The notes under the pieces: model-generated | What the model was told of the DNA's origin: nothing | Database searches by the model: none | What the model saw: the letters and a program-made list of their open reading frames with translations, nothing else | DNA from: Escherichia phage cardinal | Sequence record: PQ567651.1 | Strand: one strand, 5' to 3' | DNA: 64,000 bases | Position numbers and translations under genes: made by a program | Shown here: positions 2,722 through 49,087 of the stretch, in pieces | How positions within the stretch are numbered: the first letter of the stretch is position 1 | Layout: each line of letters starts with the position of its first letter

Positions 2722-2949
2722 TTAGTTTAATTGATCCAGGCACAACAAGCGATCAACATTCAGATCGGTTAGGCTAATCGTTGGCACCTGGTAGGATTCG
2801 ATGTACTCAACGCTCGACCATTGCCCGAAGTTAGCGACCGCCCAGCTATTCAAGGAAGAGTGAAGATCATCCCCTTTCTTCTCGGTGATAACTGCTACTA
2901 CCTGGGAGCTTCCAACCGTACCGGATACGCGAACAATAACGATAGCCAT
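2722..2949 (-). CDS. hypothetical small protein
   Basis: 75-aa ORF; GAAAGG RBS; palindrome 2972-2992 in the leader. Confidence 0.45.
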   Translation of the reverse strand: MAIVIVRVSGTVGSSQVVAVITEKKGDDLHSSLNSWAVANFGQWSSVEYIESYQVPTISLTDLNVDRLLCLDQLN

Positions 2950-2971
2950 AATGATAACCTTTCTTTGATTT

Positions 2972-2992
2972 GGCGGGAAACCATTTCCCGCC
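2972..2992 (-). promoter_or_regulatory. GC-rich palindrome, same family
   Basis: ggcgggaaaccatttcccgcc, identical to the copy at 5675-5695, followed by the conserved ctatgtgata box. Confidence 0.55.
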
Positions 2993-3003
2993 CTATGTGA
3001 TAT

Positions 3004-3031
3004 ATCTTACACTAATTTAAAACGTTGTCAA
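3004..3031 (-). promoter_or_regulatory. sigma70-like promoter (TTGACA, 16-nt spacer, TAAGAT)
   Basis: On the minus strand TTGACA at 3031-3026 and TAAGAT at 3009-3004; predicted transcript start falls at the edge of palindrome 2972-2992. Confidence 0.45.
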
Positions 3032-3126
3032 ATTATTTTCTATTTCTTCCGTAATAGCCCAATTTATGATCTAAGCTAAAACGTTTTGTGAGATAGGTCG
3101 AACGATGTTTCATTTTTATGTCTCCT

Positions 3127-3366
3127 TTACATTCCAACCATAGCGGCACGGATCGCGGTTTTACTGAACTTGAATCCGTCTGGCGTTTTATCTTGATCCA
3201 TACTTTCAAGAAATAACATCATATCCCGCGCTGCGTCATTCTTATTGGTGTTAGCTGCGATAAATTCACGCGCAAGATTATAAAAACCTTCATCGTTGTT
3301 GATCCAAAGGCTTACATTCCAATGAGTTTTGTTTTTGTGACCTAAGAACATTTTAGATTTAGCCAT
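3127..3366 (-). CDS. hypothetical small protein
   Basis: 79-aa ORF; palindrome 3391-3407 upstream. Confidence 0.5.
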   Translation of the reverse strand: MAKSKMFLGHKNKTHWNVSLWINNDEGFYNLAREFIAANTNKNDAARDMMLFLESMDQDKTPDGFKFSKTAIRAAMVGM

Positions 3367-6835: not shown

Positions 6836-7429
6836 ATGAAAAAAGTTTTTGGAGTAGGCATTAACGATAGTGCAAAGCCGATCAAAGGTTGTCGATTCTA
6901 TGCAACATGGCGCAACATGTTACAACGTTGTTATAGTGAATCATATCAGGACAAAAGGCCATCTTATAAAGGTTGTAGTGTTTGTGATGAATGGTTGACG
7001 TTTAGCACTTTTCGTGCTTGGATGGAACAGCAGGATCACCAGGGAAAACAATTAGATAAAGATATAATAACACCGGGTAATAAACTCTATTGTCCTGATC
7101 GTTGCGTATTTGTAACGCAAGAAATGAATAGTTTGTTAACAGTTACAAAGAGTAACAAAGGGGATCATCCTTTGGGTGTTTCATTTTTGAATCATAAACC
7201 ATTGCCGCGCCCTTATTTAGCAACAATACGTTATAATAACGTAGTGGAAAGATTAGGGTACTATGTAGATCCTTTATCCGCTCATTTGGCCTGGAATAGG
7301 CGCAAACGTGAAATAATCATAGAGATTATTAGTAATGAAACGGATTCAAGGATCGCCGCTGGCTTGGCTTTACGTGTTGACGCTCTCGATCTGGCTTATG
7401 AAAATAAAGCGGAAATAACTTGCTTATGA
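6836..7429 (+). CDS. putative homing-endonuclease-like / DNA-binding protein
   Basis: AGGAGG RBS then ATG at 6836; motif ATWRNMLQRCYSESY...YKGCSVCDEWLTFSTF, resembling the W..M..RC...Y.G..VC..W..F..F signature of phage HNH-associated proteins (assigned from memory). Confidence 0.4.
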   Translation: MKKVFGVGINDSAKPIKGCRFYATWRNMLQRCYSESYQDKRPSYKGCSVCDEWLTFSTFRAWMEQQDHQGKQLDKDIITPGNKLYCPDRCVFVTQEMNSLLTVTKSNKGDHPLGVSFLNHKPLPRPYLATIRYNNVVERLGYYVDPLSAHLAWNRRKREIIIEIISNETDSRIAAGLALRVDALDLAYENKAEITCL

Positions 7430-7432
7430 CGC

Positions 7433-7461
7433 TTGACAAGCGCCCGACAAGGGCGCATAAT
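7433..7461 (+). promoter_or_regulatory. sigma70-like promoter (TTGACA, 17-nt spacer, CATAAT)
   Basis: TTGACA at 7433-7438 and CATAAT at 7456-7461; fires into the non-coding repeat region. Confidence 0.45.
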
Positions 7462-7682
7462 CTCTTACATAGACAGGAACGCCTACCAATGGCGCTAAAC
7501 TTGGTGATGATAGCCGCAGGGCATCGACAGCTATAATCGCCGGTAGCTCGTCTAAAATAAATTTGTAAAGAAATGTAAAGATAAAAATAATCGCTTGCTT
7601 TTGTTGTTGGTTATGCTATTCTTATTGTATGGCGAGGGGACACGGGAGCGCGAGACAAACACCGCCCCTGCGCGTTATTTTC

Positions 7683-7800
7683 TAAATGAGAAAATTCTCA
7701 TTTGCTAATGATTCTCATTCTCTTACTGAGAATGATTATCACTTACATAATTAAATGATAATGATTCTCATTTACAAATGAGAATGATTATCATACGCAT
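7683..7800. promoter_or_regulatory. cluster of AT-rich palindromes resembling Fur boxes
   Basis: tgataatgattctcatt and aatgagaatgattatcat match the GATAATGATAATCATTATC Fur consensus at about 14-15 of 19 positions; 3-4 overlapping copies. Confidence 0.35.
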
Positions 7801-7810
7801 ACCTATAAAA

Positions 7811-8035
7811 ACACGAAATTGAACTTTTCATTTTTGATTTTTCTACGGAAAAAGGCAAAAAAACTTTAAATAAACTGGGGAATTTTTAAAAAATTGAAGT
7901 TTTCATTTTCAAAATCTGGATAGAAATACGTACAAAAACTTTAAATAATTTTGACCAAACTTGAACTTTTCATTTTCAAAATTTGTACCCAAAAATCTGT
8001 AAAAACTTTAAATAATTTTGTACTTTTTATAAAAA
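7811..8035. repeat. three tandem ~72-bp direct repeats (iteron-like)
   Basis: Each unit contains ttgaa(c/g)ttttcatttt(c/t)aaaat and aaaaactttaaataa; AT-rich, no ORF. Confidence 0.6.
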
Positions 8036-8171
8036 TGATTTTACTGTTCTGTTATAAGTAGTAGTTAAGAGATAGTATGCCTTTTAAAGATCAGATACCA
8101 TAGTCAAACAAACAAATTAAATACTTTATTAACAGAGTACAGAATAATATTTACTCTGGATATATTATTCA

Positions 8172-8210
8172 GAGGGTGGATTTCCGTACATGAAACCCAC
8201 ACCCCTTTTT
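8172..8210 (+). terminator. putative intrinsic terminator
   Basis: gggtggatttc / gaaacccac stem followed by ccccttttt; no plus-strand CDS upstream, so it may end a non-coding transcript. Confidence 0.4.
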
Positions 8211-8331
8211 ATAAAAATAAAAATTTTCAAAATATCAGTAAATATCAGATTGTGCTTTTAGATAAACAGCAAGGTCTGTATGCCATTTTCCTAAAAGATT
8301 TTGTCCTTTCCAACAGTCCTTATTTTCCACA

Positions 8332-8787
8332 TCACGATCCCACATTCCCATTTTTGATACCATAAATAGAATCATAAGGGCTTGCCTCTACGAACTCCTT
8401 ATCTGCGTAAGCGATAAGTTTATTTTTGAGATCTTCATTTTGTGTGTATTTAAGATACAAACCACGTTTGACAATCTTCTCCCGTAAAGAAGTCCAGGTA
8501 TCTTCATCATAATCTTTAACTAATCTGCCTAGACGTTTATAATATGCTTGTTCTTTTTCTCCTGTATATCTTAGATCTCCGGTTAAAATAGAAGATGCAA
8601 TATTGTAATCATAAAACAAACATGCTTTTCTCCACATCATATATTGTTCCACACAAGTAAATTCGACAGAACTTGTGATAGAATTATTATACTTGGGAGC
8701 TAAAGGTTCAATAAAAGATGATAGATACCAGTTGCTAAATTCATCTTTTGCCGAGAAAAAGAACACATACTTGTCAGTAATCCGCAT
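8332..8787 (-). CDS. NADAR (YbiA/DUF1768-like) domain protein, putative ADP-ribose N-glycosidase
   Basis: 151 aa; FFFS..DEFSN, CVEQYMMWRKA, YKRLGR, WTSLREKIVKRGLYLKYTQNEDLKNKL and SPYDSIYGIKNG align with the conserved blocks of E. coli YbiA. Confidence 0.65.
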   Translation of the reverse strand: MRITDKYVFFFSAKDEFSNWYLSSFIEPLAPKYNNSITSSVEFTCVEQYMMWRKACLFYDYNIASSILTGDLRYTGEKEQAYYKRLGRLVKDYDEDTWTSLREKIVKRGLYLKYTQNEDLKNKLIAYADKEFVEASPYDSIYGIKNGNVGS

Positions 8788-10185
8788 TTACACCTCCTTA
8801 TTGTATACTAATTTGCCACCATATTGTGTAACAATTTTTTGAAGATTTTCCAAATCAGAAACACTTACTGTTTCTGTATGACCATCTTTCAACTCTCTTG
8901 CCGTTAAAATACCAGTTTTTAATTTTTTCTTTATAGCTCTTTCAGCAGCCTTACATTGTTTCACTGTGCTAAAATCATATAAACAAATACGCTCCATAGG
9001 AAACATATTACAGCTATTTTGACGTTTTAATCGACTATCACTATTTTTAGCTATACCAAACTTAAGAGCAACTATAATATTATCATCCTTAACAATATTA
9101 ATATATAACTGCTGCTGACTATGACCAGCACACATAGGACAACCTCGACCGTGGCTTAATAAGGCATTAGCCCTCCCTGTCTGTTCCCCATGCACAAGAC
9201 AAAGATATTTAAACTTACCGTGACTTCTAGACGGTTTACCGATCCAACCTACCCAGACATACCCTTTCCCTTCTACTTCCTTTTTTACCCTGTAGGTAAT
9301 CTGATTTTCTGTATAGTGATAACTAGTTGCACAGCGGCAAGGGATACTTCCTTGTTTTAGGGGCCACCCTTTAGAGTAAAATTTACCATCGCAAACACCT
9401 GCTTGAACATATTCATCATGGGAGCAAACAGGACACTCAACCATCCATACTGCATCACGCTTGTTACGTTTCCCTGTATTGGTGAAGATAGTGCCTTCCT
9501 TAAATTTCCCTGTAGAAAAGAAATCTGCAATATGTTGATCGTCGGACATTGTTAGTGCCTTCCTTGTATTCTCATACCTACATAAAGGACAACCATAACC
9601 ACGTTTAAAATTGTTAATACTTGTAGTATCCCATTTATAACCACAGTGACACAACAAATCAAGTTTTGTTTTATGTCCTTTCCATTTTCCAACGTACCCT
9701 AACACCTGATACCCCTTCTTCTGTGCTATCTCTTCCAAGATCGGTAATTCTGTTTCCCATGCTAACGGTTTATTACTTGCACATGCCGGACAACCACGTC
9801 CATTCCTAAAATCAATAATGTTTGTGGTGTTCCACTCTCCATGTTTAGGGCAAATTATGCGAATTTTTGTTCGCACACCTCGCCACTCCTCGGCAAGACC
9901 TATAAAAGTAAACCCTCTTTCTTTAGCAATATCAACAAGGGAGATACATTCCTTTTCTTCTGTTACTTTTCTATGACCATTGCAATCGGAGCAACATTTA
10001 CCGCCTTTAGTTTTAAATACATTGATTATGGTACTTTCCCACTCTCCATGATCAGAGCAAGATAGCTTAAGCCTAGTCCTGCTACCTTTCCATTCACCAA
10101 CATAACCCAAGATTTGAATATTGTGATTTTTAGCAAGGGGTATTAATTCTTCTTTATATTGTTCCCATGATTTTAGTGCTACCAT
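8788..10185 (-). CDS. protein with five tandem zinc-ribbon-like repeats and a C-terminal T5orf172/GIY-YIG-like domain
   Basis: Five ~50-aa repeats of the form GY.G.WKG..T...L.C..HGEW......F..G.GC..C; C-terminus IVALKFGIAKNSDSRLKRQ...AERAIKKKL resembles the T5orf172 family. Confidence 0.5.
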   Translation of the reverse strand: MVALKSWEQYKEELIPLAKNHNIQILGYVGEWKGSRTRLKLSCSDHGEWESTIINVFKTKGGKCCSDCNGHRKVTEEKECISLVDIAKERGFTFIGLAEEWRGVRTKIRIICPKHGEWNTTNIIDFRNGRGCPACASNKPLAWETELPILEEIAQKKGYQVLGYVGKWKGHKTKLDLLCHCGYKWDTTSINNFKRGYGCPLCRYENTRKALTMSDDQHIADFFSTGKFKEGTIFTNTGKRNKRDAVWMVECPVCSHDEYVQAGVCDGKFYSKGWPLKQGSIPCRCATSYHYTENQITYRVKKEVEGKGYVWVGWIGKPSRSHGKFKYLCLVHGEQTGRANALLSHGRGCPMCAGHSQQQLYINIVKDDNIIVALKFGIAKNSDSRLKRQNSCNMFPMERICLYDFSTVKQCKAAERAIKKKLKTGILTARELKDGHTETVSVSDLENLQKIVTQYGGKLVYNKEV

Positions 10186-18244: not shown

Positions 18245-18721
18245 ATGTCTAAACGTTTTGGTCGTAATCAAAAAAGAAAGTTAAGTGCTCAACTAGCAGC
18301 TTTGCAAAAAGAGGTTAACACTTTACAAAAAAGTGTTTGTGAACTTAAGGAACAAAACCAACTTGAAAAAGAGTGTATCCAGCTTACACAGGAAGTTATT
18401 GGTGAGTATTTTCCTTCACTAGTTCCTAAGAAGGTGGCTCTTAGGGAAAATCTACCTTTTACCTTGTCCTTAATGCAAGCAAATGATAGATTCCAAACTG
18501 AAACTGATGATTTGATGTTTGCAATGCATCAATTACATGGTTTAGAATATACAGCACAAGTGGATAAACTTCGTAACATGTTATATGTGCGGGTAGAAAC
18601 ACCTAAAGGTGAGACAGTAGCTTTTAATTATAATTTCCAACAGCTACCTGATCATATTATTGAACAAATTTTAAAACGAGATTTTGTTCCTATGCTTGTT
18701 AAACAAATTAAGAGAGGTTGA
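18245..18721 (+). CDS. hypothetical protein with N-terminal coiled coil
   Basis: 158-aa ORF; heptad-like QLAALQKEVNTLQKSVCELKEQNQLEKE. Confidence 0.5.
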   Translation: MSKRFGRNQKRKLSAQLAALQKEVNTLQKSVCELKEQNQLEKECIQLTQEVIGEYFPSLVPKKVALRENLPFTLSLMQANDRFQTETDDLMFAMHQLHGLEYTAQVDKLRNMLYVRVETPKGETVAFNYNFQQLPDHIIEQILKRDFVPMLVKQIKRG

Positions 18722-18722
18722 A

Positions 18723-21497
18723 ATGGCTAAGAAAGAGTTGAGCTTCACTCCGACAGAAGAGCAAACAGCTATTAAGGAGGCTTTTCCAGATCATCGCTTT
18801 TTAACTATCCAAGCTAAATCTGGATCAGGTAAAACGTCAACACTTTATTTGCTGGCTAACAGTACAGAAGATCGCATTCTTTACTTAGCTTTCAATAAAA
18901 GCATGGCAGAAGAAGCACGACGTAAGATGCCACCAAATGTAGAATGCCGTACATTGCATTCTATTTGCTATCAATTCCTGGATCATCGTTTACGTGCAAA
19001 ACTGTCACGACCAGAAGGACAGTATGTTAACGTTGCAGGTACAGGTAGCGAGATAGCAAAGAAATTTAAGATTAATAATCTTATTGATAAACGAGGGAAA
19101 ACACTTTTAACTCGTGCTATGATTGGTTTAATGATCAAGCAAACCGTAGGTAAGTTTGAATTTTCGGATGATCCTTTTATCAGCCGTAAACATTTTCCTA
19201 GTGTACATCTTGCAGATATTAAAAGAAAAGGTATTAACGAACACAAACTAATTACAGAAGTAGTTAAGTATGCAAAACAATTGTGGCGAGAGCGCATCGA
19301 TCCTAACACAGATACTTTGATGACGCATGACACCTATGTAAAATTGTTTGAATTGTCTGGTGCTGATCTTGGTTATGACATTATTTTTGGGGATGAATTC
19401 CAGGATGTTAACCCTGCATTCTTGTCTATTCTGCGAAATGCTAAATCTGCAAAACAAATTGTGGTAGTTGGCGATGAATTCCAATGTGTGTCGGAAAACA
19501 CGGTACTTAACACCGAGAATGGTCAGGTTACAATGAAAGACCTGCAAATCGGTGATAAGGTAGAGTCTTATTCTAATGGTAAAGTTACATTTAGAAAAGT
19601 AACAAATAAGACTTTATCTACACGTACAAAAGGTAGGAATATTATTACTGCTACAGGTAAAACTTTAGATATGACACATAACCATCGTATTTGGGCTTCA
19701 TCCTATGTTCTGAAAGATGACCAGATGGTGGTATACCTAATGTGGAGGAAAGATTTAGGTTTCCGAGTAGGGATCACTAACAAATTCGATGATAAAGAAG
19801 GTTTTTCTAAACTGGGGCAACGTACACGTTCTGAAAAAGCACAGAAATTATGGGTGTTGGACATTGTTGAAAATCGCGAAGCTGCTATGGAAAAAGAAAT
19901 GGCATACAGTTTACAATATGGCATTCCTACTTGTGTATTTGAAGCAAGTTCACGCGGCATTAATCAAGAAAGGATCAATAACATCTTTGAACAATTCGGA
20001 CAAAATGGTTTTAAACTTTTAGAGGATAAAGATTATCATTTTGCTTATCCACACTGGCACAGCATCAATTGTGCAGTAGATGAAAGAAAAATGCTAACAG
20101 TGACTTTGCGAGCACAAAGTTGTAAAGGAACACAAGTTAGTTTTGAGTGGACAGAAAGTGAAATGCCGATCTATTCTTCACTGATTAAAGCAGGTGTAAG
20201 CGTAAGTGCTGCTAAATTGGAAGGTCGTTACCGTGTACGTAAATATTTCAATTCTTATCGTGAAGCATTGAGTTTTGCACAAAAGATCCTTGAAATAGTT
20301 CCGTTTGCATCTTTAAAAGAATGCATGTCCTCTGTGAACAGTGCCAAATATAACTTAATTCCGGCAGCGGGTTTGTTTAAAGGCATGTCTGTGTTGGTAA
20401 AAGATGGTGATACTGTAACGGCAGAAGAGATTGTGGATATTGTAGATAGTGAGGGTATCTATTATGATATTGAAGTAGAGGATACTGCTAACTTCTTTGG
20501 CAATGAAATTCTTAGCCACAACTGCATTTATCAATTTAGAGGTAGCTCTAATATGATGATTGAAACAGCTAAGTATGGGGCAGAACTTCCATTAACTGCT
20601 TGCTTCCGTTTTGGCCCCAAAGTGGCAAACATTGCCAATATGATTTTAAGCGATAAAGAACCTTTGCGTCATCCTTTGGTTGGTAAAGGCTTTGATACTG
20701 TAGTAGGTAGCTACAAATCAGATGTTGTAGACTATACAAAACCTTACACTATCATCTTTCGCAAGAATTTAACCTTGCTTATGGAGGCAATGGATCGTAT
20801 TGCAGATGGGGAAGAAATTATTATTAACGTAGATACCAGGGATTTTATCTCTATGGTAGATAGTGTTAATGCTCTTCGGAGAGGAGATATTGAGAAAGTA
20901 AAACATGAAACTGTATTACCTTACGCAGACTGGGATGAATTTGTTGAGTGTGCAGAGGCTGATCCAGATGCTAAACGCTTGTTAAACATCGTAGTTTCTG
21001 GTAAGGCGAACACCATAGCACATACACTTAGAACGCACAGAAATTCTCCTACAGCAAAAGTCACACTTACTACAGCACACAAGTCTAAAGGTTTGGAGTG
21101 GGATCAGGTTATTGTTGCTAATGATTTTCCTTCCAACTATGATAAAAAGACTGGTGAATGGGTAGGACTAGAAGAGGCAGAGCGAAACCTACTGTATGTA
21201 GCGCATACCCGTTGTGTTAAATGCTTACAATGGAACACAACCGTACAGGAGATTATAGATATCAATCGTGTTGCAACAGAGAAAGTACCAACAAGCACCA
21301 CTTTACCGATCAATGGTATTAAACTTGGTGTATTTGGCGCTGGCACATCTCGAAAAACTGTAGAAAAATTTGTTGCAGATTCTTTTGATGGTAACTATAA
21401 TCATGCACAAGCATATGAGAGTTGGTTAGAGGAAGGTGAAGGTGATTTTTTAGGTGAAATAAATCTTTTACCAGACATAAATAAACTGGTAAACTAA
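18723..21497 (+). CDS. UvrD/PcrA-like SF1 DNA helicase containing an intein
   Basis: Walker A AKSGSGKTST, motif II FGDEFQDVN, motif III split as VVGDEFQ | intein | CIYQFRGSS; precursor 924 aa. Confidence 0.8.
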   Translation: MAKKELSFTPTEEQTAIKEAFPDHRFLTIQAKSGSGKTSTLYLLANSTEDRILYLAFNKSMAEEARRKMPPNVECRTLHSICYQFLDHRLRAKLSRPEGQYVNVAGTGSEIAKKFKINNLIDKRGKTLLTRAMIGLMIKQTVGKFEFSDDPFISRKHFPSVHLADIKRKGINEHKLITEVVKYAKQLWRERIDPNTDTLMTHDTYVKLFELSGADLGYDIIFGDEFQDVNPAFLSILRNAKSAKQIVVVGDEFQCVSENTVLNTENGQVTMKDLQIGDKVESYSNGKVTFRKVTNKTLSTRTKGRNIITATGKTLDMTHNHRIWASSYVLKDDQMVVYLMWRKDLGFRVGITNKFDDKEGFSKLGQRTRSEKAQKLWVLDIVENREAAMEKEMAYSLQYGIPTCVFEASSRGINQERINNIFEQFGQNGFKLLEDKDYHFAYPHWHSINCAVDERKMLTVTLRAQSCKGTQVSFEWTESEMPIYSSLIKAGVSVSAAKLEGRYRVRKYFNSYREALSFAQKILEIVPFASLKECMSSVNSAKYNLIPAAGLFKGMSVLVKDGDTVTAEEIVDIVDSEGIYYDIEVEDTANFFGNEILSHNCIYQFRGSSNMMIETAKYGAELPLTACFRFGPKVANIANMILSDKEPLRHPLVGKGFDTVVGSYKSDVVDYTKPYTIIFRKNLTLLMEAMDRIADGEEIIINVDTRDFISMVDSVNALRRGDIEKVKHETVLPYADWDEFVECAEADPDAKRLLNIVVSGKANTIAHTLRTHRNSPTAKVTLTTAHKSKGLEWDQVIVANDFPSNYDKKTGEWVGLEEAERNLLYVAHTRCVKCLQWNTTVQEIIDINRVATEKVPTSTTLPINGIKLGVFGAGTSRKTVEKFVADSFDGNYNHAQAYESWLEEGEGDFLGEINLLPDINKLVN
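19485..20522 (+). mobile_element. intein (346 aa) inserted in helicase motif III
   Basis: Begins with Cys (CVSENTVLNTENGQV...), ends ...EILSHN followed by +1 Cys; extein junction restores GDEFQ-CIYQFRG. Confidence 0.7.
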
Positions 21498-21507
21498 GGG
21501 GGTTAAA

Positions 21508-21759
21508 GTGGCAGGGTATCATTTGAAGGAGATTAGCAAAGAGGAATATGGTTCTATTGCTAAGATTCAAGAAGAGCTTTATGAACTTCAAGATGCTATT
21601 GATCAAGATTGCAAGCTGATGCAACTTATTGAGTTATCAGATATTGTAGGCGCTGTTGAAGGTGTTCTTGAACAACATTTTCCTGATATGACGCTTCAAG
21701 ATTTGATCACTATGTCAAACATTACTAAACGTGCATTCCGCAATGGAGGTCGATCATGA
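21508..21759 (+). CDS. hypothetical protein
   Basis: 83-aa ORF; GTG start after GGGGG RBS. Confidence 0.4.
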   Translation: MAGYHLKEISKEEYGSIAKIQEELYELQDAIDQDCKLMQLIELSDIVGAVEGVLEQHFPDMTLQDLITMSNITKRAFRNGGRS

Positions 21760-22328
21760 ATGTTGCAGTAATAGCTCAAGCTGTTGATTACTATGGTCGG
21801 TTTGCACAAATGTTGGAAGTTCCATATCTCGTGGATGCTGATATACTGGCGTACACACTACCAGAAAATAAAGAGGATCGCCCATTAGGGCATCCTAACG
21901 GTAAATACTATGTAGCTAGTGCAGAACAATCTTTCCTGCAAATGGAGAAGGATGGTTTTGAATTTGCAGCAGGAAATCCTTACATGGCACTAACACCATG
22001 TTACCGTACAGAAGAAAATTTAGATGATACTCATTTTAATATTTTCTTGAAATTGGAGTTGATTGAGTTCTACCCTGATGCTACAATTGAAGAGTATGCT
22101 AACTCTATGCGCTGTTTCTTCTCTACTTATTATGGAGTTAAAACATATTTAGTACCCACTAATATTGGGGTTGACGTAGAGGATGAATATGGTTTAGAAT
22201 TAGGTTCATTCGGTATAAGGGAGTCTCCAAAAGGTCATCCTTATATCTATGCAACAGGTATTGCGGAGCCTAGGGCTTCACTGGCAATAAACCGTGTTGT
22301 AAATAAGATTCAAAGCATTAGCAAATAA
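21756..22328 (+). CDS. class II aminoacyl-tRNA-synthetase-like / AsnA-like catalytic core (minimal)
   Basis: TPCYRTEENLDDTHFNIFLKLELIEFY resembles class II motif 2 (CFRNE...H.PEFT.LE.Y); only 190 aa. Confidence 0.35.
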   Translation: MNVAVIAQAVDYYGRFAQMLEVPYLVDADILAYTLPENKEDRPLGHPNGKYYVASAEQSFLQMEKDGFEFAAGNPYMALTPCYRTEENLDDTHFNIFLKLELIEFYPDATIEEYANSMRCFFSTYYGVKTYLVPTNIGVDVEDEYGLELGSFGIRESPKGHPYIYATGIAEPRASLAINRVVNKIQSISK

Positions 22329-22340
22329 GAGGAGAATAGA

Positions 22341-22775
22341 ATGTCTATTGTGACACAAATGAAAGCAGATCGTATCTTAGCACGTACAACCGATAAGGGT
22401 GCTTTTGCTTTGTTAACTAATATTATTGGTGAGTTTGACCTTGCTCGTACTCAAAAGGCAAATCTGAATAAATCAGAAGATGATATTATGATTAACATTG
22501 TTAAGATTGGTATTGCACACGCTAAAGAGGAACTAGACTCGCTTAAGAAAGTTAATGCCTCCATTAGCAAATGTGAGCGAGCTATGCGTGATATCACCAC
22601 TCTGGAGAAATATTTACCAGAAATGCTATCTGAAGATGATCTTCGAGCTATTGCCGAAGAATTTGCCTTGACAGGCAAGAAAATGCCAGATATGATGAAA
22701 CACCTTAAAGCAGAGTATCCGAATCAATATGATGGAAAACTTGCTTCTACCATTGCAAAAGAAATTTTAAACTAA
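22341..22775 (+). CDS. GatB/YqeY-domain protein
   Basis: LEKYLPEMLSEDDLRAIAEEF...DGKLASTIAKEIL aligns with the YqeY motif (YLP..LSDEEL ... DGK..S..V...L). Confidence 0.55.
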   Translation: MSIVTQMKADRILARTTDKGAFALLTNIIGEFDLARTQKANLNKSEDDIMINIVKIGIAHAKEELDSLKKVNASISKCERAMRDITTLEKYLPEMLSEDDLRAIAEEFALTGKKMPDMMKHLKAEYPNQYDGKLASTIAKEILN

Positions 22776-22792
22776 TTTAGAAGGAGAACATA

Positions 22793-23743
22793 ATGATTGC
22801 ATTTTACGCTAATAAACTGGAAGTTAAAAAAGCAGCAGAAGAGATGGGTATCCTGCATATTCTTAATGAAGCAATTCACAAAAGTTTTGGTTACACATCT
22901 GAAGCAGAAATCAATGATCTGATTCATAGTGTTAATGACTTGTTCTTCTATCCTAACTTCCTACAGCAATTAGATGGTTGTGGATTTGAATATATGGAAC
23001 TTCACCCTGAATACACATTTATGGAAGTAACACCTGAAGGTTTTCTGGAGATTATTCGTACTGAATATCTTGCCAACGAGGATAAAGAAATGGATATGGT
23101 TGCAAAAGTACAACTGACTGTGCATAATACGTGTTTCCTGGATACTAGTGCAACGGAAGAAGATATTAGTTATCTGCTTTCCGTTTGTAATCCGCATTGT
23201 CCACAACCACATTGGAAAGATGCAGACCATTATCTAACATATTCAACTGAAGAAAACATTACTTTCTTCGATGAAAACAGTGGTATTAATGGTGCACATA
23301 AGAATTCTCCATATAGGAAAGATCGGTTTGTAGTTGATGTAAAAACATTTACTAAACTGTTTGAGGAGTATTATTCAAAAAATGAAAGTAAGACTGAATC
23401 TTCACCAAAACCACGTTTTCGTCGTCCACGTAAACCTGTGCCTACTCGTTCTGTAAGTTATGTTCGTATCATTTACACTACGCAGCAGGTATATACTCTT
23501 AAGAACGTAAGCACTCTTACTGTACAAGAAGATGTAATTAATATTGTGCGTAATAATGTTATTACAGAGGGTATTGAGGAAAAGATTATGTCTGTTATCG
23601 ATCCTAAACTTGTTATGGCAATCATTATTAATGAACCAAAAGGTGTAACAACATTGTTCCGAAATATTCATGGCACTTGGGAAACTCAAGTTGACGGTTT
23701 GACTTCTGACGGTTGTACACGTATTACCAAAAACCTTGACTAA
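22793..23743 (+). CDS. hypothetical protein
   Basis: 316-aa ORF with AAGGAG RBS; no recognisable domain; terminator downstream. Confidence 0.55.
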   Translation: MIAFYANKLEVKKAAEEMGILHILNEAIHKSFGYTSEAEINDLIHSVNDLFFYPNFLQQLDGCGFEYMELHPEYTFMEVTPEGFLEIIRTEYLANEDKEMDMVAKVQLTVHNTCFLDTSATEEDISYLLSVCNPHCPQPHWKDADHYLTYSTEENITFFDENSGINGAHKNSPYRKDRFVVDVKTFTKLFEEYYSKNESKTESSPKPRFRRPRKPVPTRSVSYVRIIYTTQQVYTLKNVSTLTVQEDVINIVRNNVITEGIEEKIMSVIDPKLVMAIIINEPKGVTTLFRNIHGTWETQVDGLTSDGCTRITKNLD

Positions 23744-23791
23744 GATCAAGGACAATCTTACGAAAAAGATTTAAAATAAAGATCCACCCTA

Positions 23792-23819
23792 AAGCCAGCA
23801 TTAAGCTGGCTTTTATTTT
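23792..23819 (+). terminator. intrinsic terminator
   Basis: aagccagc-atta-gctggctt stem-loop followed by ttattttc. Confidence 0.55.
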
Positions 23820-23832
23820 CCACGGAGGATTA

Positions 23833-24690
23833 ATGACCCAAAAACTATATGAGGATGTAATCGGATTCCTCGAACAAACATCCGAAGAATTTACTCGTGA
23901 AAATGCAAACAAACCTGCAATGATTGTTAATACTCACCGAGATTTACTAGCAGGTATCCTAAGCAAGCACATGGCAATGACCCATATTTTACCTGAAGAT
24001 TTAGCAGAATGGCATAAAAGTGGGTATGGTCACATCCACGATTTAGATTATTTACTCTCACCTTTAACTAATTGTTGCCTGGTAAATTACCAAGATATGC
24101 TTGAGAACGGTTTCCGTATTGGTAATGCACATATTGAAAAACCAAAATCTATCGGTGTAGCGACTACTGTCCTAACTCAAATTATTCAAGCAGTAGCTTC
24201 TAGCCAATATGGTGGACAAACTTGTGCACATGTTGATACTGGGCTTAGTCAATACGTTAAAGCAAGTTTTAATAAAATATATGCCGATGTTGGCGATTAT
24301 GATATTGCTATGCGTATGGTAGATAAACAGGTCTATGATGCAATGCAAACTTTAATCTACCAGGTGAACACTCTAATGAGTGTAAATGGTCAGTCACCTT
24401 TTATAACAATTAGTTTAGGTTTGGATACCTCTGCTTTTGGTAGAATGATCACTAAAAACTACCTAATGGTGCACAAACAAGGATTGGGAAAAGATAGGGT
24501 AACTCCTGTGTTTCCTAAAGTTATCTTCTTCTTGGAAGATGGTGTTAACATGAAAGCTGGCGATCCAAACTATGATTTGAAGCAACTGGCAATGGAGTGT
24601 TGTGCTGAACGCATTTATCCTGATTTTATCTCTGTACCTTTAAACAAAGAAGTTACAGGATCTTCAGATGGTCGCGTCACAAGCATGGGT
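23833..24690 (+). CDS. nrdD: anaerobic ribonucleoside-triphosphate reductase, exon 1
   Basis: Aligns with E. coli NrdD from NENANK...RDLLAGI through GDPNYDLKQLAMEC to ...VTGS...MG; exon ends on U after the Gly codon. Confidence 0.85.
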
Positions 24691-24970
24691 AAACTATAAC
24701 TGCTCATGTAAAATCTGCCTAAACGGGGGAACTCTCAACGAGACAATCCCGTGCTAAACGTAACAGAACTCCCAACACAGAAGAAGGGGGGTACTATTAC
24801 GAAATGCCTAACGACTAGCTGTGATGAATGTAGCAGCGTAGGGTGTAAGCCTATGACACCCCAAATGGTAGACATGCTTTAAGCATGAAGATATAGTCTG
24901 ATCTGCATGGTGACATGCAGCAGCACGTAATGGTGCGGGAGTGGCCTTGCGAGCCACTTTGAACATAATG
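24691..24970 (+). mobile_element. group I self-splicing intron (ORF-less) in nrdD
   Basis: 280 nt separating two NrdD halves that sit in different frames; core element ctaaacgggggaactctc...gacaatcccgtgctaaa closely resembles the phage T4 td/nrd intron core; 5' exon ends in U and intron ends in G. Confidence 0.75.
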
Positions 24971-25912
24971 TGTAGAAGTTTCTTGTCATACTATGCAACA
25001 GAGCAAGGTGAAAAATATGATGGTCGTTTCAACTTAGGCGTAGTTTCTTTAAACTTACCTATCATTGCAGCAGAGTCCCGTGAAAAGGGCATCTTATTTA
25101 CTGAACTGTTGGAACAACATATGGAGATGGCGTATAAGGCACATATGCTACGTGTTAACCGTATTAGACATACCAAAGCATCTCAAAACCCTACATTGTT
25201 TATGGAAGGGGCTTTAGCTCGACTAGAAGCTAATGAAGAGATTGGTAAACTATTTGAAGGTGGTTATGCCTCTATTAGTATCGGTTATGTAGGTTTAGCA
25301 GAAGCTATGGAGATTTTATACCCAAATAACACCAATCCAAAAGCAATGGGTAAAAACATCCTTCAATATATGAAGGATATCTGTTGCACATTTAAAGAAC
25401 GTTCTGGTTTAGCTTTTAGTTTGTATGGAACACCAGCAGAATCCTTGTGCTATAAATTTGCCAAAGCGTTAAATGATCGCTATCCTGGCTCTATTGATCG
25501 TGACTATTTGACAAACTCTTTCCATCAACCTGTATGGATGCACACTACCCCGTTCCAAAAGTGGGATTATGAGGAAGGTTTTGCACAAATTAGTAATGGT
25601 GGGAACATAGGTTATGTAGAAACACCAAACCTTAAAAATAACTTGCAAGCACTGGAAACTCTTGTAGATTATGCCTACAATAAAATTCCTTATTTTGGCG
25701 TGAACCAACCTGTAGATCAGTGTTTCAAATGTGGTTTTCATGGTGAATTTAAGGCAACAGCTAAAGGCTTCGAGTGTCCAAGTTGTGGAAATCATGAAGA
25801 AGAATCCATATCTGTGATCAGAAGAGTGTCAGGATACCTTTCTGCTCCTAACTCTCGCCCTTATAATAAAGGTAAGATGCAAGAGGTACTAGAAAGGGAG
25901 AAACACTTTTGA
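24971..25912 (+). CDS. nrdD: anaerobic ribonucleoside-triphosphate reductase, exon 2
   Basis: Begins CRSFLS (E. coli MGCRSFLG), contains NLGVVSLNLP, the C..C...C..C zinc ribbon and glycyl-radical motif RRVSGYL. Confidence 0.85.
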   Translation, partial: CRSFLSYYATEQGEKYDGRFNLGVVSLNLPIIAAESREKGILFTELLEQHMEMAYKAHMLRVNRIRHTKASQNPTLFMEGALARLEANEEIGKLFEGGYASISIGYVGLAEAMEILYPNNTNPKAMGKNILQYMKDICCTFKERSGLAFSLYGTPAESLCYKFAKALNDRYPGSIDRDYLTNSFHQPVWMHTTPFQKWDYEEGFAQISNGGNIGYVETPNLKNNLQALETLVDYAYNKIPYFGVNQPVDQCFKCGFHGEFKATAKGFECPSCGNHEEESISVIRRVSGYLSAPNSRPYNKGKMQEVLEREKHF

Positions 25913-26379
25913 ATTACGCCGGATATGAACCTGTTGACATGCTCAACGGTGACGGTGTAAGATGCTCTTTGTGGGTGAGCGGTTGTAGCCACGGTTGCCG
26001 TGGCTGCTTTAACCAGAAAGCCTGGTCGTATAACTACGGACAAGAGTTCACTGCTGAAACATTAGATCTTATCTTGGAAGATTTATCTCGACCTTTCATT
26101 AAAGGATTAACAGTTTTAGGTGGTGAACCTCTTGACAAAGAGAACATTGACACTGTAGAGTATGTTCTTGAGAAGGTAAGAGATTGTTTTGGAAACAAAA
26201 AAGATATTGTCTTATATACAGGATATCTTTTTGAAGAAATTCCAGAGAAAATTAAAAAACTGGTTGACATAGTGATAGATGGTAAGTATGATATGAATCA
26301 ACCAACAACGAAACGTTATAGAGGTTCAGATAATCAACGAATGTGGGTTAAGAAAGACAACATTTGGGAATCTGACTAA
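25909..26379 (+). CDS. nrdG: anaerobic RNR activating protein (radical SAM)
   Basis: CSLWVSGCSHGCRGCFN cysteine-cluster motif; immediately downstream of nrdD; TTG start overlapping the nrdD stop. Confidence 0.8.
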   Translation: MNYAGYEPVDMLNGDGVRCSLWVSGCSHGCRGCFNQKAWSYNYGQEFTAETLDLILEDLSRPFIKGLTVLGGEPLDKENIDTVEYVLEKVRDCFGNKKDIVLYTGYLFEEIPEKIKKLVDIVIDGKYDMNQPTTKRYRGSDNQRMWVKKDNIWESD

Positions 26380-37361: not shown

Positions 37362-37964
37362 ATGGGTATTACTTTAGAAGGTCAAAAACTTATTCGTAGC
37401 GGTAATTTTCTTGTAGATATTGACAACAATGAAGATTATGCTTTAGAAGTTAGTGATGTACTGTTTGATGCTTTGCAGTCTGGTTTCAATTTTGAAGTTT
37501 ATGAAGTAATCCGTGGAACTAAACTCAGAGAAACCCTTGGATCAACTAGTGATGTTTATTCTGCGATCTGGCAATATTTCGGGTTAATGGATGGTAAGAC
37601 ATACCTTACTGATAGTTATTCTGAAGATGTTGTTTATCTTGATATGGAAGAGTTTCGTCGTCTGTTCAAGAATGAAGAAAATGAAGAAGAGGGCGAACTT
37701 TTTGAAGGAATTACTCTCGAAGGTAATGTTGAAATTGTGTATAAAGCAGGAAAAACATTCCACTTGCGCGAAAACGGTAAAGCAAAAGTTGATTTTGTAA
37801 ACAAGACAGTGACAACCGAACATAATTATCTTAAAGATGGTCAACCAGCTTTTGAACGTGTAAAAATTAAATTTAAAGTGTTGTCTGCACTAGTTACGGA
37901 TCAAGAACGTATTGATTTTGTAGAAGATGGTGTAGTAACTCATACAAAGGTTTACAATATCTAA
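37362..37964 (+). CDS. hypothetical protein
   Basis: 200-aa ORF with GAGGAG RBS. Confidence 0.5.
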   Translation: MGITLEGQKLIRSGNFLVDIDNNEDYALEVSDVLFDALQSGFNFEVYEVIRGTKLRETLGSTSDVYSAIWQYFGLMDGKTYLTDSYSEDVVYLDMEEFRRLFKNEENEEEGELFEGITLEGNVEIVYKAGKTFHLRENGKAKVDFVNKTVTTEHNYLKDGQPAFERVKIKFKVLSALVTDQERIDFVEDGVVTHTKVYNI

Positions 37965-38056
37965 CAGAGTGTAAGAGGGGGATAGTCCCCCTCCACTTGC
38001 AAAATAGCCTCTTCTGTGTTACAATAAAAGTTCGTTTAACAAAATAGGAGGCAAGT

Positions 38057-38566
38057 TTGTCAATAAAAACCTTTGTCGCAATTGCGTTACTATCCTTAAC
38101 TGCTTTTACATTTACACCTGTTGTGGCGCAAGCCGAAGCTGCAAACGTAAAAACTGCTAAAGTAGTTCACAAGTGTACAAAGCGTGATAGTAAAGAAAAT
38201 CTATTAGCTTGTGCAATCTATGCAGAAAGTCGTAATCAAGGAAAGCGCGGTATGTCTGCTGTTGGTAATGTAGTATTGAATAGGGCTAGAGATTCATATT
38301 TCCCTGATACTATAAAAGAAGTTTTGTTTCAAAAAGGACAATTCTCTTACACAAAGACATTCAACGTTATGGAACGTGATAAGTGGAAAGACGCTAAAGC
38401 TATAGCAGAACGTCTACTTTATCTCGATAACCATTTTCCAGAATTACGAATTGCATTAGATATTACAAAAGGAGCATTATACTTTAAAAAATCTACAATA
38501 AGAGCACACTGGGAAAAAGATATGGTTCTAGTGTACCGCTACAAAGAACATCAATTCTATCGCTAA
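38057..38566 (+). CDS. SleB-like cell wall hydrolase (Hydrolase_2 family) with signal peptide
   Basis: Signal peptide MSIKTFVAIALLSLTAFTFTPVVAQA; LACAIYAESRNQGKRGMSAVGNVVLNRA matches the cell wall hydrolase signature; TTG start after AGGAGG. Confidence 0.6.
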   Translation: MSIKTFVAIALLSLTAFTFTPVVAQAEAANVKTAKVVHKCTKRDSKENLLACAIYAESRNQGKRGMSAVGNVVLNRARDSYFPDTIKEVLFQKGQFSYTKTFNVMERDKWKDAKAIAERLLYLDNHFPELRIALDITKGALYFKKSTIRAHWEKDMVLVYRYKEHQFYR

Positions 38567-45041: not shown

Positions 45042-48000
45042 ATGGGAGCTTTTACTTTCGACATTGAAAGTAACAACTTGCTTAATGACGAAAGTGTAGA
45101 TTACTTGGCAAGTCCATATCGTTTAAAAGATAGTTTTGCAATGCACTGTATTGTGTGCGAAAGTCATGAGACTGGAGAGATTATTGCTTTCCATGATGGT
45201 GATAAATATCTTTTCGATGGTCGTCCGTATATTGAGACTGACGGAAAGTATGAATACCGACTGGAGGAATATGAGCATTTAGAATATACCCATTTCCCTC
45301 TTAAAGATTTTCCTGATTTTGTAAATGGAACAGGTAAATTTAAAGGTAATTCAAACTATAAAATTACCAAAGTAGTTGGACATAACATCATTAACTTTGA
45401 CTTACTGGCAATTAAATTATTTTTTAAACTCAACTACAGTATTAAGTACAATACTTGGGGTAATAGTAACATTGAAATTTGTGATACTATGATCTTAAGT
45501 AAGACACTAAACCCTGATCGCTTCGGTGGTCATAGTCTGGCAGAGTTATCTAAGAAAGCTGGAGGGGATGTTAAAATTGATTTTAGAAAAAACATCCCTG
45601 AAACTGAAAGATTTAAAACATTTGCAGCAGATATGCTGTATTACTGTATTTACGATAACAAAGCTAACACCGCAGTGTTCCGTTATTTGATGGAAGAGTG
45701 GGGTGATTATAATAAGTGGTCTGAACCATTTAACTTAGAACAACGTGTAGCTGATATTATTACACGTCAAGAGCACCGTGGCTTTGCTTTCAATATGAAG
45801 CAAGCAGAAGATAATATTCGTGATCTGGATGCTCGAATGGAAGCATGTCGTTTAGAGGCAGAACCTGTGCTACCTCCTAAACCTGCTACTAAAGGTTATT
45901 TGAAATCATTCATTCCACCTAAACTACAGTTTAAAAAGAATGGTGAACCTTCAAGTAACATGATAAAGTTTGCAGAGAAACATTCTGGTGAACTTGTACA
46001 AAAAGAAGATGGTTGGTGGTTATTTGCATTAGGTAAAGAGTTTAAACTGCCTATTCCAGCAGAAGAACCTATTTGTGATCCTACAGTACCTGCTACTTTA
46101 GACGACACTACACATATTAAAAATTGGTTAGTTGGTTTAGGTTGGAGTCCATCTGAATATAAAGATAAAGATATCACTCTTAAATCTGGCACTAAGATTA
46201 AGAAAGATGAAGCACAAATGGAGAAAGCTATTCGTGACTATGTTGATCAAACGTTAGCATCTAACTTCTGCCAGGACAGATGTGATCATCTGGAGTGCAC
46301 ACCAGAAACTTTGGAATGGAAACTAAGAGATCGTATTGCTAAAGCTAAAGGTCGTGGTGTTAAAGTGCTTACTAACCCTTCCTTTACAAAAGGGCAAGAG
46401 AAAGATATTTGTCCTAATTTGGAAGCACTAGGTGAAAAGTTTCCTTATGCTACGCAGATTGTGCAGTATCTTACGTATAAACACCGTAGGAACTCTATTC
46501 TAGGGGGTGGTGCTGATTGGGAAGAAGATGAAGAGGATTACGATAAAGGTTATCTGGCAGCAGTAAGGGCTGATGGTCGTATACCAACCCCTGCTGCAAC
46601 GTGTGATGCAGCTACGTCTCGTATGAAACATAGGTTAGTAGCAAATATCCCACGTGTAACATCTCTGTACGGATATGAAATGCGTAATTTATTTGGTGTA
46701 GAAGTTCCAAAATACTTCCAAATTGGTTATGACTTTGATTCTCTTGAGGCAAAAATAGAATCACACTACTGTGTACCTATGGATGCACAAGCACTAACCC
46801 GTAAAGGTTGGGTTGGTTATCACGATCTACAAGAAGGGGATGAAATCTTAGGATATAACCCAGAAACAGGACTTAAAGAATGGACTAAAGTAAAAGGTAA
46901 GGTCTTCTATAAAAATAGTAAGACGTTTGAGATTAAAGGGAAATCACACACTTACCGTGCAACAGCAGATCACCGTTGGTATGTTAATACCCGTAGTAAA
47001 GGGAATACTTATGTGCCTAAAGTCAGAACAACTGCCGAGCTTTGCACAGGAGATAATATTATTTGTAATGCTCCATTTAACATGGAACAAGATCAGGTAA
47101 ATAGTTTAACTTCTGTTCAACAAGGTAAATGGGATGTTCCGTGGGTAGAGCGTGTAGTTAATATGTCTCATGCCGAGCGTGTGGCTTTCTTGGAAGGTTT
47201 TTTGATTGCGGATGGTTACTGGCATGAACATAAACAAAAACCTGTTTGGCGTTGGGCGCAGAACCCAGGTGAACTTTTTGAAGCAGCTTTAACTGCCTCG
47301 TACCTGGTGCATGGAGGCAATATCTCTGTAGCTTTCAATACAAAAGAGCAGAAAGTAAAAGTGGCAACATTGGCTAACCGCTCTCACATTCCTGTTCAAA
47401 GTTTGACTATTGAAGAGTGGGGTGTAGAGGATGTTTGGTGTCCACAAACAGAACTTGGTACGTGGGTCATGCGTCAGAAAGACTGCATTACCATCACAGG
47501 AAACTGTTGGCGGTACGAGCAGGAACCACACGAATATTGTAATGCTCTATTATTGGAAAAACCTAATGATGTTCATACAATGATGGCTCGACGTATTTCT
47601 GACACTATTGGTCGTAAGTTTGAACGAAGCCCTGCTAAATCTGTTAAGTATGGTATTACTTATGGTGCTCAAGCTGCAAAAGTAGCAAAAACTATAGGTA
47701 GTGATATGTATACAGGACAGCTTGTATACGATGCTTTCTGGGAAGCTGCAAAACCTCTTGCGCTTCTTAAAGAACGTCTGCATGATTTTTGGGTTAAAAC
47801 AGGTAAGAAATACATTCTTGGTATTGATGGTAGGAAAGTACCTACACGATCTGCACACGCAATACTTAACTCTCTGTTCCAGAGTGGTGGTGTTATTTGT
47901 GCAAAAAGAGCAATGGTTATCTACGACGATCTTATCGAAGAAGAAGGATTAGCTGTTGACTTTTTTGTTGATGACTGGAAAAATAAGTCATTCGTTCAAC

Positions 48001-48493: not shown

Positions 48494-49087
48494 ATGAATA
48501 TTGAAGATCAAAAAGTACGAGCTTTAGAAGTATTACGTATGTGCCAACTGGTAGATCCGTTTGCAATTGTAGCTGGCGGCGCTGTACGTGATTGGCGATT
48601 AGAGAAACCTGCGCAAGATATTGACATTTACTTGCGTATGCCTAACCACAATACACTCGTACTAGTAGAGAAATTTTTGATGTTGGGTGTTGGTGCACGT
48701 AATGTTAAACAACTTACTAAGCAAACAGAACACACTTATGCCGAACTACCACATTTGAAATGGGTATTTGAAGCATACTATAAAGATCTTAAGTTTAACT
48801 TTATGATCATGGAAGAAGGTGTACGTAGTGAAATCGTATGGAACTTTGATGTAGCTATCTGCCTGTGTTACTGGGATGGTCAAAATTATGTATATCATCC
48901 AGATTTTGAATTTGCATTGAAGACTAATATTTGCACTATTAATCACCGATACACAGGTAAAGAAGCACACGTCCGTAAAATGGCAGAACGTTTCCCTATG
49001 TTCCGCTTTGTAAAAGACGTTTTCATTCCCAAAGAACCAGAAGTACGTACACTAGATTCATTTAACAGTGAAGAATTTAAAATTTAA
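48494..49087 (+). CDS. Pol-beta-superfamily nucleotidyltransferase (CCA-adding enzyme head-domain-like)
   Basis: FAIVAGGAVRDWRLEKPAQDIDIYL matches the GGaVRD...DiD head-domain signature of tRNA nucleotidyltransferases and poly(A) polymerases. Confidence 0.5.
   Translation: MNIEDQKVRALEVLRMCQLVDPFAIVAGGAVRDWRLEKPAQDIDIYLRMPNHNTLVLVEKFLMLGVGARNVKQLTKQTEHTYAELPHLKWVFEAYYKDLKFNFMIMEEGVRSEIVWNFDVAICLCYWDGQNYVYHPDFEFALKTNICTINHRYTGKEAHVRKMAERFPMFRFVKDVFIPKEPEVRTLDSFNSEEFKI

Follow-up and report, generated by a model that had tools for sequence, protein, structure and literature searches.

Introduction

The amino acid:[carrier protein] ligases arose from the zinc-dependent, methanogen-type seryl-tRNA synthetase (SerRS); they are proteins of about 300 amino acids (aa) that act together with a phosphopantetheinylated carrier partner. 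SerRS itself can make diadenosine tetraphosphate (Ap4A), and HisZ, another paralog of the class II aminoacyl-tRNA synthetases (aaRSs), has lost the motif arginines together with the acidic residues that bind metal and adenylate. In the 2-aminoadenine phages, the MazZ-PurZ pair provides a precedent for a phage MazG-like enzyme that feeds a nucleotide to an amino-acid-using ligase. Here, we analyse a locus of Escherichia phage cardinal, within a stretch of 64,000 nucleotides (nt) of record PQ567651.1 (hereafter the window), in which a minimal class II core of SerRS type (hereafter the core) is encoded between a gene for a small, probably MazG/HisE-like protein of 83 aa and a yqeY gene.

An original prediction, made from the sequence of the window, had combined the core and YqeY into a split tRNA-directed enzyme. 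Our analysis points to another pairing. With the scales standing close to level, we favour the reading that the core is a catalytically intact, SerRS-derived class II core which forms a two-component unit with the 83-aa protein, and not with YqeY, and whose acceptor is probably something other than tRNA.

A minimal class II core of SerRS type

Positions 21400-23000 of the window share 98% identity with more than 50 phi92-like coliphages (Justusliebigvirus, Stephanstirmvirinae), and the open reading frames (ORFs) of the core and of YqeY are the counterparts of phi92 gp196 and gp195, respectively. Both lie on the plus strand where the original prediction had placed them and, judging from their family matches (core to phrog_4806, E=8.6e-71; YqeY to phrog_1460, E=1.5e-36), they are conserved genes and no chance ORFs. 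The motif-2-like segment on which that prediction drew (TPCYRTEENLDDTHFNIFLKLELIEFY) is present in the core ORF.

As a single sequence, the core retrieved nothing useful from the PDB, and no synthetase model of Pfam or NCBIfam, tRNA-synt_2b and serS included, reached its threshold; the sole synthetase match was tRNA-synt_2d at E=0.21. A profile of core homologues matched exclusively class II synthetases among PDB sequences, the best being SerRS 2dq3 (E=8e-5). The hhalign comparison with E. coli SerRS gave a probability of 89% and paired VPYLV with VPYLV, SAEQSF with TAEVPL, TPCYRTE with TPCFRSE and FLKLE with FDKVE. The core begins with a helix (residues 3-13), which is followed by VPYLV (motif 1). 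Across 40 homologues, the hallmarks of motifs 1, 2 and 3 (P23, R84-x-E86, F97 and G168..R173) are invariant or nearly so; the strictly invariant positions are P23, S55, E57, Q58, T80, C82, R84, F97, K99, E101, D140, E148, G150, S151, G153, T167, P172 and R173, and the motif 2 pattern was found in 354 members of the family. Together with the AlphaFold2 (AF2) model (pLDDT 95.1, pTM 0.89), these profile matches, alignments and motifs show that the core has the class II fold, with helices flanking an antiparallel beta-sheet core, and all three class II motifs, so that the class II identity claimed for 21756..22328 in the original prediction stands.

At E<=1e-30, the core family comprises 1,045 clusters (50% identity), nearly all of 175-200 aa; its members number roughly 1,600. 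A natural class II core of 176-200 aa with all three motifs is close in size to the minimal 'urzymes' discussed for the origins of synthetases and, should its active site work, it would be the smallest natural one of its kind.

The residues that resemble the SerRS pocket (T/S-A-E, R-x-E, F-x-K-x-E, E-x-x-S and a T/S at -6 from the motif 3 Arg) could be aligned directly with E. coli SerRS in the N-terminal half of the core and were matched by spacing and topology in its C-terminal half. In particular, E148-x-x-S151 and T167-G-x-A-x-P-R173 have the same spacing as E-x-x-S and [ST]-x-x-A-x-x-R (motif 3) of SerRS. A hidden Markov model (HMM) of the C-terminal third gave no HMMER alignment to E. 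coli SerRS; the mapping of this part, which is based on pattern, spacing and topology, is therefore tentative. The roles of these residues in metal, serine and adenylate binding we take to be those seen in the T. thermophilus SerRS-adenylate structures.

The helical arm of SerRS is a site critical to recognition of the variable arm of tRNASer, and the motif-2 loop enters the major groove of the acceptor stem (PMC9427863; PMC4666401). In the core, the N-terminal helical arm is missing: the protein sets in at motif 1 and aligns with E. coli SerRS only from residue 186 on. Its motif-2 loop has 9-10 aa and a median net charge of -1 among 354 members (zero or negative in 90%), as against 16 aa and a charge of +2 in E. 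coli SerRS, the core loop being 6 residues shorter. Since the arm is missing and the loop is both shorter and acidic, the core most likely does not perform canonical tRNA serylation, and it is not a housekeeping SerRS. Identity as a histidyl-tRNA synthetase (HisRS), a label found in PHROG and GenBank, was rejected as well: the core shows neither the defining similarity to HisRS nor an anticodon-binding domain.

One divergent relative deserves mention. Klebsiella phage phi1_175008 (PP357458.1) encodes at 37567-38136 (-) a 190-aa paralog (hhalign probability 97%) in which SAEQSF is replaced by NPSQAV, FLKLE by SLIVA, ELGS by VVCR and the PR of motif 3 by PT. The MazG-like gene is absent from the entire phi1_175008 genome. 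From these substitutions, the paralog looks like a pseudo-enzyme offshoot of the family.

The conserved partner of the core

The original prediction described the core and yqeY genes as overlapping. They are in fact separated by a 12-nt spacer (22329-22340), and the overlap is one that it did not mention: a 4-nt ATGA (21756-21759) joins the stop codon of the upstream 83-aa ORF to the start codon of the core, which is preceded by GGAGG at 21745-21749, 6 nt 5' of the ATG.

We scanned 69 core-bearing loci (64 IMG/VR contigs, 4 metagenome loci and the window) with custom HMMs. The MazG-like gene adjoins the core in 66 of them, mostly immediately upstream with a stop/start overlap and downstream in 4, and in three loci (L052, L061 and L062) both are encoded by a single ORF with the MazG-like domain at the C-terminus of the core. 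Among the best 150 representative clusters, 8 are such fusions, and another 17 fusion proteins were recovered in addition. No fusion of the core with YqeY was found among the fusion-length proteins retrieved, the fused partner always being MazG-like. The same association is apparent from tblastn records in phages (272 for the core, 262 for the MazG-like protein), with near-identical counts per genus: 111 and 112 for Escherichia, 13 and 13 for Caulobacter, 10 and 10 for Pectobacterium, 8 and 8 for Cronobacter, 7 and 7 for Brevundimonas. By host, the core-bearing phages belong to Escherichia, Acinetobacter, Caulobacter, Pectobacterium, Cronobacter, Microcystis, Brevundimonas and others. A census of 150 flanking ORFs from 48 loci revealed no third conserved neighbour; scattered genes of RNA repair and nucleotide metabolism were present instead. 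The conserved and sometimes fused partner of the core is the upstream 83-aa gene, and not yqeY; this gene is situated immediately beyond the range that the original prediction covered. Near-obligate coupling and repeated fusion with a MazG/HisE-like domain would make this pair a two-component enzyme without a described counterpart.

In four core homologues (P0104, P0096, P0037 and P0161), a C-terminal Cys-rich, zinc-ribbon-like tail (CxxC...CxxC) takes the place of the MazG fusion. Some MazG-like proteins (L003/L042, L025/L035, L033, L044 and L073) carry extra domains of 120-230 aa that lack a Pfam match.

The 83-aa protein is probably MazG/HisE-like. Its family has as invariant residues Y4, H5, I9, K19, E22, E23, E26, E42, D45, F77 and R82, and EExxE(x15)ExxD, the motif of the all-alpha nucleoside triphosphate (NTP) pyrophosphohydrolases, is invariant in 61 MazG-like domain sequences as well as in a separate alignment. 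When 23 members were compared with Pfam, PRA-PH (HisE) was found in 19 (best E=5e-4) and MazG in 5, all below the gathering score. The best PDB sequence match is the MazG-like protein 1vmg (E=0.086), aligned across the acidic motif; the 83-aa ORF as a single sequence gave nothing useful against the PDB. Two GenBank submitters have taken the same MazG-like view of this protein. Because hhalign comparisons of the MazG-like profile with E. coli MazG and HisIE were not significant, we regard the assignment as probable and not as proven.

For a natural fusion (P0156, 268 aa), AF2 gave a compact and confident model (pLDDT 96, pTM 0.90), with an ordered linker that contains the invariant GYH, followed by three long helices; the acidic motif is located on predicted helices. 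A Foldseek search of the PDB with this model returned the cores of pyrrolysyl-tRNA synthetase (PylRS) and SerRS alone, the MazG-like fold not being matched independently. A carrier-protein identity of the 83-aa partner was considered and rejected: in some members of the family, Ala takes the place of the serine of its ELSD segment (S44), whereas E22, E23, E26, E42 and D45 are invariant. Overall charge was also set aside as an argument against RNA binding: it does not discriminate, since both proteins have a median pI of about 5 and acidic synthetases are numerous.

YqeY is an independent accessory gene

The YqeY ORF matches Pfam PF09424 (E=5.3e-7; 30.3 bits against a cut-off of 27 bits) and, in the PDB, B. 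subtilis YqeY (1ng6, E=1.1e-4) and 8xjg (E=0.01), in agreement with the domain assignment of the original prediction. It is not a GatB amidotransferase, having 144 aa as compared with about 480 and only the tail-type YqeY domain detected.

The pairing proposed for YqeY fared less well. In the loci that we scanned, YqeY adjoins the core in 3 of 69, all phi92-like, and lies two genes off in one more. We found it in 117 phage records, among them 55 phi92-like, 6 from Klebsiella (77%), 44 from Vibrio and 7 from Sinorhizobium; only the phi92-like and Klebsiella ones belong to the same subfamily as that of the window. In Vibrio and Sinorhizobium, YqeY occurs without the core, and neither is among the ten most frequent genera of core-bearing records. 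Conversely, of the 272 phage records with a core, 211 are without YqeY, and the core is missing from about half of the records that carry YqeY. Sister phages keep either gene alone: Phapecoctavirus (Stephanstirmvirinae) has the order helicase, 83-aa gene, core and ORF316, with YqeY absent, while in Klebsiella phage phi1_175008 the same slot between helicase and ORF316 is taken by YqeY, with no intact core. In the Justusliebigvirus lineage, YqeY is an accessory gene in its own right that occupies this variable slot.

A tRNA-related role of YqeY itself has some appeal. In Vibrio phage Thalassa (NC_042095.1), YqeY (2896-3339) is encoded inside an array of tRNA genes, where tRNA-Val and tRNA-Trp flank it; this YqeY is shared by about 44 related Vibrio phages, and the gene context was read for Thalassa. 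This position makes a tRNA-related role of phage YqeY plausible, independently of any synthetase-like gene, and YqeY of the window probably binds tRNA. The core, which is without the SerRS arm and has a short, acidic motif-2 loop, gives no such support to the tRNA-directed chemistry of the original prediction.

Distribution beyond phages

Fusions of the core with the MazG-like domain are also present on cellular contigs, of a bacterium of the candidate phyla radiation (CPR) and of archaea. In a metagenome-assembled genome of Candidatus Woesebacteria (CPR; GCA_029561095.1), the fusion locus spans 7234-8801, with NrdR divergently adjacent; a canonical SerRS of 424 aa with N-terminal arm is encoded 5 kb downstream of the fusion gene. 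On the archaeal contigs, the fusion is accompanied by PriS/PriL, Trm5, TFS, CDC48 and a ribosomal protein operon. Since the module is found in CPR and archaeal genomes, and in CPR beside a canonical SerRS, it is neither a replacement SerRS nor phage-specific.

The Woesebacteria fusion gene also overlaps a radical SAM gene of 256 aa at the latter's end; this gene is most similar to MoaA (E=7e-10) and to prokaryotic viperin (1.3e-6). MoaA (GTP 3',8-cyclase) and viperin both act on NTPs. Neither the archaeal loci nor the others examined showed this association.

Proposed activity and alternative explanations

The SerRS adenylate-pocket-like positions (S-A-E, R-x-E, F-x-K-x-E, E-x-x-S and T-G-x-A-x-P-R) are invariant, which suggests that the core would bind ATP and L-serine, or a close analogue, and form seryl-AMP. 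The activated group would then be passed to an acceptor other than tRNA. Such an acceptor appears most likely given the loss of the elements that contact tRNA and an obligate partner of a type that binds nucleoside triphosphates; our favoured candidate is a nucleotide that the MazG-like subunit would hold at its Mg2+/triphosphate site. The chemistry could consist in seryl transfer to the ribose of the partner-bound nucleotide, yielding a seryl-nucleotide, or in an attack of the bound NTP on seryl-AMP, yielding a dinucleoside polyphosphate (Ap4N). Alternatively, the MazG-like subunit may process the nucleotide substrate or product. It is tempting, if distinctly speculative, to go further and to see in the core and its MazG-like partner an unrecognized family of tRNA-independent ligases of large phages, CPR bacteria and small-genome archaea that applies seryl-adenylate chemistry to a nucleotide held by the partner. 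If this were so, the product, a 2'/3'-O-seryl-nucleotide or a dinucleoside polyphosphate, could be a new metabolite or signal.

Several points weigh against our favoured reading. Seryl-AMP formation and the nature of the acceptor are both deduced from sequence features, and the MazG/HisE assignment is below threshold at the sequence level. The predicted fusion structure was assessed by its confidence scores, compactness and secondary structure. Furthermore, RNA ligase (twice), RlaP (twice), PTH2 and YqeY (twice), as well as phosphatase genes, are found near the module in some loci, and these RNA-repair and tRNA-related neighbours leave room for a tRNA end as the acceptor. Class II catalytic fragments can also weakly charge tRNA acceptor stems without recognition domains.

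Three other explanations were considered. A HisZ-like role is unlikely: the core would be mainly a serine- and ATP-binding regulator of a MazG-type NTP pyrophosphohydrolase that clears or reshapes nucleotide or alarmone pools, which would tie nucleotide metabolism to amino-acid status. The invariant MazG-type catalytic motif agrees with this idea, as do the neighbours from nucleotide metabolism (NrdD/NrdG and the helicase in the window and in Phapecoctavirus, NrdR in CPR). However, neither the arginines of motifs 2 and 3 nor the acidic residues that bind metal and adenylate vary among more than 350 members, so that catalysis is to be expected rather than sensing alone, and the single degenerate paralog has lost its MazG partner instead of keeping it. 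It is quite unlikely, too, that the core and the MazG-like protein are an auxiliary SerRS that charges tRNASer of host or phage, perhaps as a heterodimer borrowing the arm of the host SerRS, and so keeps Ser-tRNA charged during infection. The SerRS-type pocket signatures and the dimer-interface proline of motif 1 are invariant, the phages that carry it are large and have many tRNA genes (two tRNA-Ser genes in one sister phage), and there is a precedent in insect mitochondria, where the arm-less SerRS2-alpha works with the arm-bearing SLIMP (PMC10817482). On the other hand, the very loop with which SerRS enters the acceptor stem is cut short and acidic here, the obligate MazG-like partner and the fusions are left without a role, and CPR bacteria and archaea, too, possess the module, beside a canonical SerRS. 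As cores share only 30-35% identity, heterodimers with the SerRS of hosts as diverse as Caulobacter, Acinetobacter and Microcystis are improbable.

We consider least probable the explanation from which the study of this locus started, namely that the core supplies the catalytic half and YqeY the tRNA-binding half of a split tRNA-directed enzyme, which would aminoacylate, amidate or repair tRNA within a tRNA toolkit against tRNA-targeting defences. Both genes are real, co-oriented, 12 nt apart and probably co-transcribed; the active site of the core is intact, YqeY is of the GatB-tail domain type and sits in a tRNA gene array in Thalassa, and some loci have RNA ligase, RlaP or PTH2 near the module. 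Against it stand an adjacency in only 3 of 69 loci, 211 of 272 core-bearing records without YqeY, a Phapecoctavirus core without YqeY and a phi1_175008 YqeY without an intact core, fusions that always involve the MazG-like domain, and a nucleotidyltransferase (48494-49087) that is head-only, sub-threshold and 26 kb off. The pairing of the core with the MazG-like protein thus remains the reading that we prefer.

Locus organization, annotation and other features

The features of the window are listed in Table 1. The hairpin downstream of ORF316 possibly ends a transcription unit made up of the helicase gene, the MazG-like, core and yqeY genes and ORF316; in a promoter and terminator scan of the region, sites were no more frequent than in shuffled sequence. 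ORF316 probably lies outside the core/MazG-like module. It has no Pfam or NCBIfam match, and its label as 'ribonucleotide reductase' (phrog_15930) is probably unfounded, the split NrdD downstream being complete without it.

Table 1. Coordinates of the features of the window discussed in the text.
Feature	Position (strand)	Size	Family or counterpart	Remarks
UvrD/Rep-type helicase ORF	18684-21497 (+)	937 aa		Looks intein-interrupted
MazG/HisE-like protein (probable)	21508..21759 (+)	83 aa	phrog_6408; phi92 gp197-like	GTG start; AAGGGGG at 21496-21502 before the start
Minimal class II aaRS core, bacterial SerRS type	21756..22328 (+)	190 aa	phrog_4806; phi92 gp196
Stand-alone YqeY, GatB-tail-like	22341..22775 (+)	144 aa	phrog_1460; phi92 gp195
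ORF316	22793..23743 (+)	316 aa	phrog_15930	Next gene of the co-oriented cluster; syntenic anchor in sister phages
Terminator-like hairpin	23791..23813 (+)			9 bp, 5 G-C pairs, T-run; consensus scan
nrdD exon	23833-24699		Pfam NRDD positions 1-263
Group I intron in nrdD	24645-24920 (+)		Rfam RF00028	72.3 bits, E=2e-16
nrdD exon	24941-25912		Pfam NRDD positions 263-562
NrdG	25909-26379
DNA polymerase-like ORF	45042-48356 (+)	1104 aa		Putative intein-like insert
Nucleotidyltransferase, head-only	48494-49087 (+)	197 aa	phrog_1614 ('nucleotidyltransferase'), 2.6e-34	PolyA_pol E=0.0017, below cut-off

The genes of the core and of YqeY were already known as annotation, with inconsistent names. For the core, existing records have 'histidyl tRNA synthetase', which is also the mistaken label of phrog_4806, 'putative seryl-tRNA synthetase' or 'putative tRNA synthetase'; for YqeY they have 'tRNA amidotransferase', likewise the mistaken label of phrog_1460, 'Asp/Glu-tRNA synthetase / YqeY-like' or 'GatB/YqeY domain-containing protein'. 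The terms 'tRNA amidotransferase' and 'Asp/Glu-tRNA synthetase' overreach, because gp195 is without the catalytic domains of GatB. More than 270 sequenced phages carry genes under such conflicting, function-implying names, and none of the family memberships implied is borne out by the defining features. NCBIfam has no match for any of the four genes (83-aa ORF, core, yqeY and ORF316). Our literature searches found neither a functional study of the module nor a mention of the MazG pairing; NARP3, checked in the literature, is unrelated to the module.

The original prediction also linked the locus to a CCA-type nucleotidyltransferase at 48494..49087. With a head domain alone and 197 aa, this protein is about half the size of a CCA-adding enzyme (about 400 aa), and it was rejected as such since neck, body and tail domains were not found. 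The distance of 26 kb, a PolyA_pol match below threshold and the lack of any tRNA gene found in the window leave the proposed tRNA toolkit with little to connect it to this gene.

Intervening sequences are a further feature of the window. The anaerobic ribonucleotide reductase gene nrdD is split by a group I intron, and the helicase looks intein-interrupted (...GDEFQ/CVSENT...SHN/CIYQFRGS...), related records being named 'intein-containing UvrD/Rep family helicase precursor'. The DNA polymerase-like ORF contains a putative intein-like insert that extends from about ...HYCVPMDAQALTRKGW to ...ITGNCWRYEQ.

Comparison with known systems

The core shares with the catalytic domain of SerRS (T. thermophilus 1SER, P. 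horikoshii 2DQ0 and E. coli SerS) the segments VPYLV (motif 1), [ST]AE, TPC[FY]RxE and FxKxE and, as judged by pattern and spacing, ExxS and [ST]GxAxxR. It differs from SerRS in having no coiled-coil arm, about 110 fewer residues, a shorter and acidic motif-2 loop and an obligate MazG-like partner. YqeY of the window has the size of the stand-alone YqeY (1NG6) and, unlike GatB, is devoid of catalytic domains. As for the 83-aa protein, it has in common with MazG and HisE (PRA-PH) the motif EExxE(x15)ExxD on two consecutive helices; it is distinguished from them by its small size, by the family-specific invariant GYH at the N-terminus and F..G.R at the C-terminus, and by scores below the Pfam thresholds. 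Unlike in MazZ-PurZ, its partner is a class II core and not a homologue of adenylosuccinate synthetase.

Another parallel is offered by the amino acid:[carrier protein] ligases (Bll0957/Atu2573, PDB 3MEY). Like the core, they are truncated SerRS homologues without a tRNA-binding domain; they transfer the aminoacyl group of an aminoacyl-AMP onto a non-tRNA acceptor, and their gene adjoins that of a helical partner of about 80 aa. However, their identity to the core is only 10%, and the partner of the core has EExxE..ExxD and no invariant phosphopantetheine serine. HisZ, AsnA/archaeal AS-AR and EpmA/GenX are likewise class II aaRS paralogs with non-tRNA roles, but they have 275-380 aa and come from the HisRS, AspRS/AsnRS or LysRS (histidyl-, aspartyl-/asparaginyl- or lysyl-tRNA synthetase) lineages, not from SerRS, and none of them is paired or fused with a MazG/HisE-like domain. 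The module of phage cardinal is a variation on the theme of class II synthetase paralogs, already represented by AsnA, HisZ, EpmA and the amino acid:[carrier protein] ligases; what is without precedent is its MazG-like partner.

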